Counted from the first letter of the stretch, positions 51,172-54,100 are shown. The stretch is DNA of 64,000 bases from an uncultured candidate division Zixibacteria bacterium (GCA_963801605.1 CAWDFP010000006.1:1696001-1760000), one strand, 5' to 3'. Notes: generated by a model not told the origin, from the letters alone. Numbers and translations are program-made.

Positions 51172-54100
51172 GGTCAAGTTATTAAGAGCGTATGGTGGAT
51201 GCCTTGGCACAAGTAGACGATGAAGGACGTGGTAAGCTGCGAAAAGCCACGGTGAGCTGCAAACAAGCTTTGACCCGTGGATGTCCGAATGGGGCAACCC
51301 GATCCGGTTAATACCGGGTCATCACCCGCTGAATAAAATAGGCGGGCTGAGGACAACGAAGAGAACTGAAACATCTCAGTAACTTCAGGAAAAGAAAACA
51401 ACCGTGATTCCCAAAGTAGCGGCGAGCGAAATGGGAAGAGCCTAAACCGATGGCCACGTTAAAGCCTGCAGGCGTTGTGGTATCGGGGTAGTGGGGCTCT
51501 GTCGGATCTGTCTGCAGACAGGTCGGGAAGTTACAAAGCGTCTATCTAGTTGAACGATTCTGGAAAGGTCGGCCATAGCAGGTGATAGCCCTGTAGACGA
51601 AAGATAGGACGTCTTCCCCGATGGAGTACCCAAGTAATGCGGGACACGAGAAATCCCGTATGAATCTGGCCAGACCACTGGCTAAGGCTAAATACTCACT
51701 TGTGACCGATAGTGAACCAGTACCGCGAGGGAAAGGTGAAAAGAACTCCTGACCGGAGAGTGAAATAGTACCTGAAACCGTACGCTTACAAGCTGTAGGA
51801 GCCAAAACCCTGTTTCTTCGGAGACGGGGCGGAGGTGACTGCGTGCCTATTGAATAATGATCCGACGAGTTACTTGTCCGTCGCAAGATTAAGGCACTTT
51901 GTGCCGGAGTCGTAGCGAAAGCGAGTCTGAATAGGGCGCTAAGTGGCGGGCAGTAGACCCGAAACCATGTGATCTAGGCATGGCCAGGATGAAAGTGCGG
52001 TAAAACGCACTGGAGGTCCGAACCCACCAACGTTGAAAAGTTGGGGGATGAGTTGTGCCTAGGGGTGAAAGGCCAATCAAACTTGGTGATAGCTGGTTCT
52101 CCCCGAAATATATTTAGGTATAGCCTCGATGGGAGTCGAACGGAGGTAGAGCACTGAATGGGTTAGGGGGCCCACAAGCTTACCGACCCCAATCAAACTC
52201 CGAATGCCGTTCGTACGATCCACGGGAGTCAGTCGGCGAGGGATAAGCTTCGTCGGCAAAAGGGAAAGACCCCAGACTAACAGCTAAGGTCCCTAAATCA
52301 TGGCTAAGTGACAAAGGATGTAGGATTTCTAATACAACCAGGATGTTGGCTTAGAAGCAGCCACCATTTAAAGAGTGCGTAAATGCTCACTGGTCTAGAG
52401 GTTCCGCGCCGATAATCAACGGGACTAAGCCATGTACCGAAGCTATAGATTCAGTCGTAAGACTGTCTGGTAGGGGAGCATTCTGTAAGCCTGCGAAGGT
52501 GTGTCGTGAGGCATGCTGGAGGTATCAGAAGAGATTATGTCGGAACAAGTAGCGATAATCCCGGCGAGAAACCGGGACACCGAAAACCTAAGGTTTCCTG
52601 AGGAAGGTTAATCCGCTCAGGGTTAGTCGGGACCTAAGCTGAGGCCGAAAGGCGTAAGTGATGGTAAAGGCGTTAATATTCGCCTACCGCCGAAAGCGCG
52701 TTACGAGCTAAGGGGTGACGCAGAAGTGAAAGTCAGCCGGCGATTGGAAGTGCTGGTCCAAGCCTGTAGGAGGTAGAGATAGGAAAATCCGTCTCTGCAT
52801 AACTCCGAGAGGCGATGGGGAGCCCGCGAGGGCTGGTTAAACTGACTGTAAGCATGCTGCCGAGAAAAACCTCTGTGCCAGCGCTCAGGCGTCCGTACCG
52901 CAAACCGACACAGGTAGGTAGGGTGAGAATCCTAAGGTGCTCGAGAGAACCCACGTTAAGGAACTAGGCAAAATGGCTCCGTAACTTCGGGAGAAGGAGT
53001 GTCCTCAGTACGTGAAGTCCCTGCGGATGGAGCGGAAAGGGATCGCAGTGAAGAGGCCTGGGTGACTGTTTACTAAAAACACATGTCTCTGCCAAGCCGT
53101 GAGGCTATGTATAGGGACTGATACCTGCCCGGTGCTGGAAGGTTAAGAGGAGAGGTCAGGGTAGCAATACTTAAAGCTTTGAATCGAAGCCCCAGTAAAC
53201 GGCGGCCGTAACTATAACGGTTCAATTTCGTTATAACTACCTGCCCATTCATTACGGATGGACTAACAGGGCTGTTAAAAAATCCAACTGTATGCTGGAA
53301 CACCCGAGAATCCCCGGATACCGCAAGGTAACAATTCCAGGGGTGCGGACAATCAGCAGGAAACTCATCATGAGGATCCTCAGAGACTACATGTTGGAAA
53401 GCGGTTGTGCCACTGCACGGAAGTAAAAAGTCATAATGCCAAAGTTTAAAGACGCACAAGTTGGACGAAGATTAAGCAACCGCTTAAGATATAGTCCGAA
53501 CTCCATGGCGACATGGAGAGGTCAGCAGAAATGACTGATCCGCTTTTGGGAGCACTGAAAGCGTAACAATTATGCCTAAGGTAGCGAAATTCCTTGTCGG
53601 GTAAATTCCGACCTGCACGAATGGTATAACAACTTGGGCGCTGTCTCAACGTGGGGCTCGGCGAAACTGTAGCAGCGGTGAAGATGCCGCTTTCCCGCAT
53701 CGGGACGGAAAGACCCCATGAACCTTTACTATAACCTGATATTGGGTTTTGGTCGTGTATGTAGAGCATAGGTGGGAGGCTTTGAAGCTGGTCCGCCAGG
53801 ATCGGTGGAGCCAACACTGGAATACCACCCTTATTCTATTGAAATTCTAACCCAGGGCCGTGAATCCGGTCCGGGGACAATGTCAGGCGGGTAGTTTGTC
53901 TGGGGCGGATGCCTCCTAAAAGGTAACGGAGGCGCCCAAAGGTTCCCTCAGGCTGTTTGGTAATCAGCCGTAGAGCGCAAAGGTATAAGGGAGCTTAACT
54001 GCGAGACATACAAGTCGAGCAAGTGCGAAAGCAGGGCTTAGTGATCTGGCGATTGTGAGTGGAAATGTCGTCACTTATCGGACAAAAGGTACTCTGGGGA

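Follow-up and report, generated by a model that had tools for sequence, protein, structure and literature searches.

A group I intron without an ORF after U1923 of a bacterial 23S rRNA gene, with predicted pairing between its P8 loop and the root of domain IV

How does an intron that interrupts an essential rRNA helix encoded by a single-copy gene outrun the folding of the ribosome, and why does it persist after its endonuclease has been lost? Both questions are raised by a 23S rRNA gene in the window analysed here, the whole 64,000-nt stretch of DNA, which lies inside a 1.9-Mb contig. The window carries a single rRNA operon (16S, 49124-50682; tRNA-Ile; tRNA-Ala; 23S, 51172-54564; 5S, 54753-54869), and no second one is found in the assembly (3.06 Mb, 87% complete). 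The L1923 intron as such occupies a site that is common and thinly recorded for bacteria. The new part is its P8 loop, which folding models predict to clamp the exons.

The intron and its ribozyme core

An insert of 353 nt lies exactly after U1923 (53222-53574), as is confirmed by the sequence on both flanks. The 5' exon ends in ...CTATAACGGT at 53221, the 3' exon begins with CCTAAGGTAGCG at 53575, and the flanks rejoin as the standard ...AACGGT/CCTAAGGTAGCG. We take the insertion point to be position 1923 by counting from the H69 loop with the customary E. coli numbering; the helix names and E. coli numbers used below are likewise assumed, and mapped onto the Rfam consensus structure. The features of the gene and the ribozyme are as follows.

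51172-54564, plus strand: 23S rRNA gene, 3040 nt without the intron, sole copy in the assembly
53213-53221, plus strand: end of the 5' exon (3' side of H69), the P1 substrate; U53221 pairs with G53271
53222-53574, plus strand: group I intron, IB4-like, after U1923, without an ORF, ending in G53574
53268-53277, plus strand: P10 strand (53268-53270, AGG) and internal guide sequence (53271-53277, GCUGUUA)
53283-53398, plus strand: P3 (53283-53288/53393-53398), P4 (53293-53298/53353-53358), extended P5, P6, and the 5' strand of P7 (53383, 53385-53389)
53399-53485, plus strand: P8 stem (53399-53407/53477-53485), closing a loop of about 67 nt
53487-53574, plus strand: S element and 3' strand of P7 (53492-53497), P9 (53501-53518), P9.1 (53520-53540) and a short P9.2

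The insert is a group I intron. The terminal G and the five pairings named in the original prediction are all found (G53574; P3 at 53283/53393, P4 at 53293/53354, P7 at 53385/53492, P8 at 53399/53477 and P9 at 53501/53512), and the Infernal search that it had proposed gives a match of RF00028 (Intron_gpI) to 53241-53518 with 64.4 bits (gathering score 50, E 4.9e-14), a cut-off also passed by six of seven relatives tested. The intron region folds with a z score of -3.3, and none of 100 shuffles was equally stable. P3, P4, P6, P7 (with its bulged A and G-C site), P8 and P9 are all present in the core, and a conserved GUAACA (53563-53568) stands ahead of G53574. This full core rules out an RNase III-excised intervening sequence, which would be a simple long hairpin at a helix tip without a ribozyme.

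The guide sequence and P10 had been missed by the earlier reader. P1 consists of 7 bp with U53221.G53271 at the 5' splice site and, because the guide lies at 53271-53277, has a loop of 49 nt. In a comparison of 82 introns, among the matches listed, the U.G pair is present in all 82, an exon G>C change in nine hosts is met by a matching guide change in 9/9, and the core is maintained through numerous two-sided changes in P3 and P9; P6 was wrongly anchored in one intron, L155. The terminal G of the relatives was used to select them, and its count therefore tests nothing.

The assignment to subgroup IB also stood. P2 is absent, the spacing from guide to P3 is 5 nt, extended P5 and P9.1/P9.2 are present, and P7.1/P7.2 are absent because only 3 nt separate P7 from P3'. 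Archaeal L1923 introns are classed as IB4 (PMC6125680, Table 1); the label used here is borrowed from them, and the list of features behind it comes partly from general knowledge and partly from PMC1995217.

As had been proposed, the intron has no ORF: four translated stretches gave no Pfam match, and the P6 insert is 17 nt long at the place where relatives carry a LAGLIDADG gene. PF00961 (LAGLIDADG endonuclease) was not found in this 87%-complete genome, so that neither intron nor genome yields the endonuclease ORF that marks the mobile (homing) LAGLIDADG class. An endonuclease remnant in the P8 loop was considered and rejected, since in relatives the ORF sits in the P6 loop and no Pfam family matches the short frames. 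A genomic-repeat origin of the intron's loops was also rejected, with only 15-mers at E 3 and no other genomic copy. The expectation that routine annotation would miss the intron or split the gene proved overstated: Infernal gives the 23S as one unbroken match (51172-54564) and flags the intron above threshold in the same annotation.

Some minor features of the operon may be recorded here. Compared with the Rfam consensus, the 23S carries hairpin expansions in its 5' half, at 51440-51535 and 51805-51830. A partial 5S pseudo-copy, broken by inserted sequence, lies at 55532-55640, about 700 nt downstream of the real 5S. Behind the 5S gene, a short ORF (54949-55164) with a weak, below-cut-off match to MntA antitoxin (24 bits) adjoins a perfect sigma-70 consensus (54913-54940).

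Complementarity of the P8 and P1 loops to the exons

The distinctive part of the intron, which had escaped the earlier reader, is the complementarity of its P8 and P1 loops to the exons. The elements and their predicted targets are as follows.

53410-53421, plus strand: P8-loop motif predicted to pair with H62 strands (52979-52982, about 52996-53001), the weakest of three elements
53429-53446, plus strand: P8-loop element B', antisense to the H61/H62 linker (52962-52978)
53450-53463, plus strand: P8-loop element A', antisense to the 3' strand of H64 and the bases next to it (53630-53646)
52962-52982, plus strand: exon site B, comprising the single-stranded linker that follows H61 and the beginning of H62 (Rfam structure)
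53630-53646, plus strand: exon site A, the H64 3' strand and the junction into H61 (Rfam structure)
53056-53064, plus strand: native H64 5' strand, which A' would displace
53224-53242, plus strand: P1-loop segment complementary to the 3' exon (53224-53230, 53237-53242; extended P10)
53245-53261, plus strand: variable hairpin within the P1 loop
53575-53591, plus strand: start of the 3' exon, with the P10 target (53575-53577) and the extended-P10 target (53579-53591)

Site B is situated about 260 nt upstream of the intron and site A about 55 nt downstream; on the Rfam structure they are the two strands leaving the distal end of H61. In the host family, f1, the P8 loop is 49-108 nt long and has no consensus fold of its own, while short motifs are kept. 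Eight non-redundant introns of the 11 in the family were scored (the near-duplicates L189 and L209 and the cut contig L190 were excluded). Among 503 windows, drawn from each host's own exons, the top two over the eight members were +51 to +68 and -262 to -243, for sites that had been chosen after a first look at the same sequences; their mean z scores were -3.2 and -2.6, the weakest member reached -2.0 and -1.8, and the background sd was 0.57. A second scoring method returned the same two top sites, and across 1510 windows of 16S and 23S in three GTDB genomes site A ranked first and site B fifth. Loops that were reversed, complemented or reverse-complemented, which preserves their relatedness, reached -2.2 to -2.9 kcal/mol with inconsistent maxima, against -4.9 and -4.5 kcal/mol for the real ones. 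Taken singly, this genome places the sites no higher than 9th and 12th among 190 windows, and site B is weak in one member (G004, p 0.24). Exact-match complementarity in this genome alone was discarded as a signal, being at or below chance (12 7-mers seen, 18.9 expected).

A three-way junction is predicted in all eight members, with 14-18 and 10-13 pairs on its two arms. In models that use artificial linkers and leave aside the ribozyme fold, sterics, proteins and tertiary structure, the gain is 13-20 kcal/mol in 8/8, against 5-7 for shuffles (0-5/200), and the junction survives when native H62 is made available (0-3/60 shuffles). None of 16 long loops from other L1923 introns gave the junction, a control that is biased because these loops are mostly self-folding hairpins. 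For site A, A' is predicted to be stronger than native H64 in all eight members, by 1.9-6.1 kcal/mol, and the order B' then A' is that required by a nested junction at the end of H61. Two-sided changes occur at exon position +59, where C-G becomes U-A in G003 and G004, and at -246, where G-C becomes A-U in G003; because the eight members are related (exons 91-97% identical), these may represent only two or three events. These results suggest that the P8 loop probably pairs with the exons in the precursor.

Two further modelling attempts were set aside. A third target at +93 to +106 of the 3' exon is weak, with p 0.02-0.78 in individual members, and H62 explains it better; a two-strand cofold with P8 closed is uninformative, because the pairing is pseudoknotted in that layout. 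Exon-pairing loops were also sought in L5, L6, L8 and L9 of other families, with nothing convincing found; these families keep the intron without a clamp, and the clamp is therefore not required for L1923 splicing.

The absence of a clamp in sister families is among the points that favour a plainer account, which we consider unlikely: an ordinary self-splicing, ORF-less L1923 intron late in its homing cycle, whose P8 complementarity is a neutral relic (for example of an old inverted rRNA copy) or chance inflated by ancestry. The lack of significance in a single genome fits this account, as do the relatedness of the members, the picking of sites after inspection, and the readiness with which peripheral loops in the clade take up many unrelated inserts. 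However, the pairing is preserved by different letters, with two-sided changes, in loops that are only 51-60% alike (G000, G003 and G004), and at site A the pairing of each intron with its own exon variant is the best or within 0.4 kcal/mol of the best in 8/8. Moreover, two distant sites in junction-forming order are not expected from one inverted copy, and the relatedness-preserving controls fall short of the real loops. Conserved pairing of the P8 loop with both sites remains the preferred reading.

Element A' contains a second GUUGGA (53460-53465) that can pair with the 5' strand of P3 at -9.6 kcal/mol, against -9.2 for the native partner; it recurs in L191 and is absent in G003 and G004. 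By this model, it could keep the ribozyme silent until A' is taken up by the 3' exon.

The 5' part of the P1 loop is complementary to bases +5 to +17 of the 3' exon over 13 bp in two blocks. The complementarity is not significant in this genome alone (p 0.47); across families, the top P1-loop window in f1, f10 and f11 covers the first 20 bases of the 3' exon (5.7, 6.5 and 3.7 sd; about 430-460 windows), and A-U to G.U variants preserve the pairing. As an alternative, 53228-53235 can form an 8-bp hairpin with the 5' exon (53213-53221), which excludes the pairing with the 3' exon and would hide the splice site. For the 5' fragment on its own, this hairpin is predicted at -22.9 kcal/mol and P1 at -13.8, so that P1 is 9.1 less stable, and the hairpin also scores in f1 and f15. 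The simplest reading of these models is that the P1-loop segment would act as a long P10 doubling as a splice-site mask; the penalty of P1 relative to the masking fold could mean slow or host-assisted splicing. Within the segment, a CGU at intron +8 to +10 (window 53229-53231) is kept in 15 of 16 introns of the phylum, with no partner that is consistent across the families. In f10, the CGUCCC following at the same place is complementary to 3' exon position +131.

A proposed role in the folding of domain IV

Standard two-step splicing is highly probable by analogy, because the core is intact and H69-H70 must be restored in a single-copy gene. Free guanosine bound at the G-C pair of P7 would cut after U1923 in P1, and the U1923-OH would then attack after the terminal G, aligned by P10, restoring H69 and H70. 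The P1-loop segment would at first mask the 5' splice site and then be captured by the 3' exon as a long P10. B', A' and H61 would form a three-way junction that replaces native H62 and H64. With H62 and H64 blocked, the domain carrying the splice sites would thus stay open and its splice sites accessible, helping the ribozyme, and unspliced 23S would not become locked into 50S particles or enter mature subunits. Excision would remove the tether, whereupon the intron would give way to native helices, ribosomal proteins or a helicase. On the strength of the models, we rate as about even the chance that this endonuclease-less L1923 intron, which likely self-splices, uses its P8 loop to pair with both root arms of domain IV and keeps the domain unfolded until splicing.

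Two known kinds of RNA offer parallels. Chaperone snoRNAs pair transiently, in antisense, with the root helices of rRNA, and in trans-splicing ribozymes engineered with extended guide sequences the 5' extension pairs with the downstream exon. Unlike these, the elements described here would act in cis inside a bacterial intron, and no membership of the box C/D or H/ACA classes is claimed.

H61 is the root of domain IV, the domain organised last in yeast, where the H61/H62/H63/H64 junction needs a DEAD-box ATPase (PMC11024185, in part). Domain IV also folds late in E. coli, and misfolding at its root leads to dead-end 50S precursors (PMC11723945, in part). A bolder form of the proposal, which we offer tentatively and think somewhat improbable, is that the intron has been domesticated as a cis-acting assembly checkpoint or rRNA chaperone: the P8 loop would be a snoRNA-style clamp and the P1 loop a switch that unmasks the 5' splice site only once the 3' exon exists, 50S assembly would be coupled to splicing, and the family may depend on the intron. 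Because the predicted pairings to the root of domain IV are defined and compensable, both of the questions raised at the outset can be tested directly with a 350-nt ribozyme. If the proposal is true, this would be a natural bacterial example of an intron loop that guides the folding of its host rRNA.

Occurrence and history of L1923 introns

The original prediction had identified L1923 as the I-CeuI site and called an rRNA intron unusual in this lineage. The first point is borne out by the literature, I-CeuI cleaving the LSU site at n.1923 (PMC3315327, in part). The second is not: an exact-pattern search of GTDB (terminal G plus 3' exon) located the same 3' junction in at least 120 loci, and the intron is present in 16 of 285 genomes of the host phylum. 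The 120 listed loci include 53 without a full intron (short flank, twin introns, or one intron-less variant); at least 67 full L1923 introns were extracted, by record title from Actinomycetota, Acidobacteriota, Ignavibacteriota, Chloroflexota, CPR and others, and 66 were kept after removal of one duplicate. The P6 insert exceeds 400 nt in 46/63 of the long-flank introns, among the matches listed, and the one such insert tested encodes a LAGLIDADG_1 protein. Six GTDB loci (L039, L043, L068, L070, L088 and L093) show extra upstream inserts or irregular 5' junctions, likely nested or neighbouring introns. Identical intron cores occur in L044, an Acidimicrobiaceae record, and L058, a 3.3-kb contig titled Spirochaetaceae, probably through mis-binning.

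The site is missing from bacterial site lists, in line with the original prediction, which placed the classic bacterial 23S introns at 1917, 1931, 1951 or 2593: 1923 has no occurrence in the covered parts of PMC1995217 (Table 1 and text) and PMC3984707. The CPR 23S sites named in the covered part of PMC11270868 are 1917, 1931, 1952, 2593, 2604 and 2657; its supplementary figures could hide 1923 among sites 23IS6-8. Neither bacterial L1923 introns nor the pairing of a P8 loop with rRNA exons is described in the literature searched, which was covered by listing or abstract start, with subscription papers mostly outside. A common bacterial site that is missing from the reviews, as far as they were covered, matters for 23S annotation and for primers across H69-H70.

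The 285 genomes of the host phylum comprise 16 with the intron junction, 75 with an empty site and 194 with neither. Among the 14 genomes of the host family, three bear the intron and none has an empty site; in five close relatives the part of the 23S with the intron site is not assembled. Intron-bearing genomes are accompanied by no empty site, among assembled sites, in f1 (3), f10 (8), f11 (3) and f15 (1), 15 genomes in all, whereas f5 has one intron and six empty sites. All 16 phylum introns (300-884 nt) lack an ORF, as do all 26 full introns recovered from metagenomes with the 5' signature of the clade, a pattern that selects introns of the host clade only. A search for an L1923 endonuclease in the 285 genomes, with a query and PF00961, matched nothing beyond an L1931 intron, a short contig and a single place below threshold. 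Phage and plasmid collections gave six short core matches only and no such intron, and viral contigs held no intron of the family type. Elsewhere in the phylum, L019/L168 (genome G027) has twin introns on either side of a 14-nt exon, L1917 (296 nt) and L1931 (630 nt, LAGLIDADG), and the 23S of L006 (G048) holds another insert, of 247 nt, about 520 nt upstream of where the intron sits.

The phylum introns group with two Chloroflexota introns (support 94/86), while their hosts do not form one clade (5 changes, AU p 5e-5). Inside families, the intron tree matches that of the hosts: f1 and f11 are monophyletic in both, and the branching is the same in f11 and in one f10 trio. From these trees, either one old gain with losses, or several gains followed by loss of the ORF, is possible; in the proposed history, the lineage would have lost the endonuclease gene of the P6 loop and then inherited the intron vertically within families. 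The grouping of introns across scattered hosts, together with the absence of a LAGLIDADG ORF in 16 genome and 26 full metagenome members and of an L1923 endonuclease in 285 genomes, could also be read to mean that the pairings are real and serve spread or reaction geometry. The long P10 and the P8 loop would then be natural extended guides, holding the exons together for ligation, or letting the excised intron bind and reverse-splice into intron-less 23S in place of the lost endonuclease. Reverse splicing into rRNA has been shown for other introns in vitro and in E. coli, although the full route to DNA is still undemonstrated (PMC3679873, in part). The agreement of the trees within families is compatible with vertical descent and losses, every assembled site in the family carries the intron, and sites A and B are presumably buried in the mature 50S; we thus regard this use of the pairings as distinctly unlikely, and prefer a role in the precursor.

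Host dependence is a further alternative, suggested by the myxomycete introns S1389, L1949 and L2449, which likewise have no endonuclease, are inherited vertically, carry large ORF-less expansions of the P1, P8 and P9 loops, and have been proposed to have new roles (PMC3679873, in part). If the present intron resembled these in depending on its host or splicing poorly, the exon pairings would be misfolding traps for a helicase, or the rRNA would remain partly unspliced. The ORF-less loop expansions parallel the host-dependent classes of that study, as far as it was covered, and the second GUUGGA offers P3 a competing partner. The median P1 penalty is 4.2 kcal/mol in the 16 phylum introns and 1.3 in 66 others, among the matches listed, a difference that the longer P1 loop itself inflates. 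The myxomycete introns are nuclear and eukaryotic (PMC3679873, in part), whereas here the catalytic core is fully intact and the expansion has a specific predicted target in the host rRNA. Traps, moreover, are not expected to be conserved with compensatory changes, and host dependence of this kind is very unlikely. An assembly artefact or chimera is scarcely credible: although none of 24 RNA runs shared half of the words of the locus (best share 0.31), the same insertion point with a related intron is found in two other genomes of the family, 13 other genomes of the phylum and 26 full metagenome contigs, independent assemblies that largely refute it already, and the locus lies inside a 1.9-Mb contig. 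In a closer look at four of these runs, sequences joining 53221 to 53575 were seen and rejected as evidence of splicing, the sides being under 31 nt of universally conserved sequence from other organisms.

A clamp formed in the precursor, the preferred reading, would also set this intron apart from its closest known counterparts. The archaeal LSU/1923 introns share its rRNA position and subgroup label and come in a short form of about 280-320 nt and a long one of about 690-1130 nt; they differ in their archaeal hosts and in that no exon-pairing loops are described in the covered part of PMC6125680, a distinction made by description, not by sequence. The Chlamydomonas eugametos chloroplast intron, which encodes I-CeuI, occupies the same site (PMC3315327, in part; PDB 2EX5), and the bacterial L1923 endonuclease of L044 belongs to PF00961 and matches I-CeuI weakly (E 1.5e-5). 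In contrast to the I-CeuI intron, the present one has no ORF, and where ORF-sized relatives have a P6 insert of 459-513 nt, it has one of 17 nt. Bacterial 23S introns at L1917, L1931, L1951 and L2593 (PMC1995217, in part) and those of CPR (PMC11270868, in part) are also group I introns near H69-H71 without P2, and include ORF-bearing and ORF-less forms side by side; here, by contrast, all of the phylum's introns have lost the ORF and the intron is apparently fixed within families, and no exon-clamping loop is described in the covered parts of those sources.

Relatives in the phylum have acquired other loop sequences. Three f10 introns (L166, L163 and L161) have a palindromic repeat inserted in the P8 loop, with 26, 36 and 8 matches in three genomes, and f11 introns (L155 and L153) have another loop repeat, with 27 and 7 matches in two of three genomes. 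The MITE-carrying dsrA intron of Ca. Thiomargarita nelsonii also has genomic repeats in its loops (PMC4853749, in part), whereas the loops of the present intron have no other genomic copy. Judged by these matches, the introns of the relatives act as a landing site for REP/MITE-like repeats.
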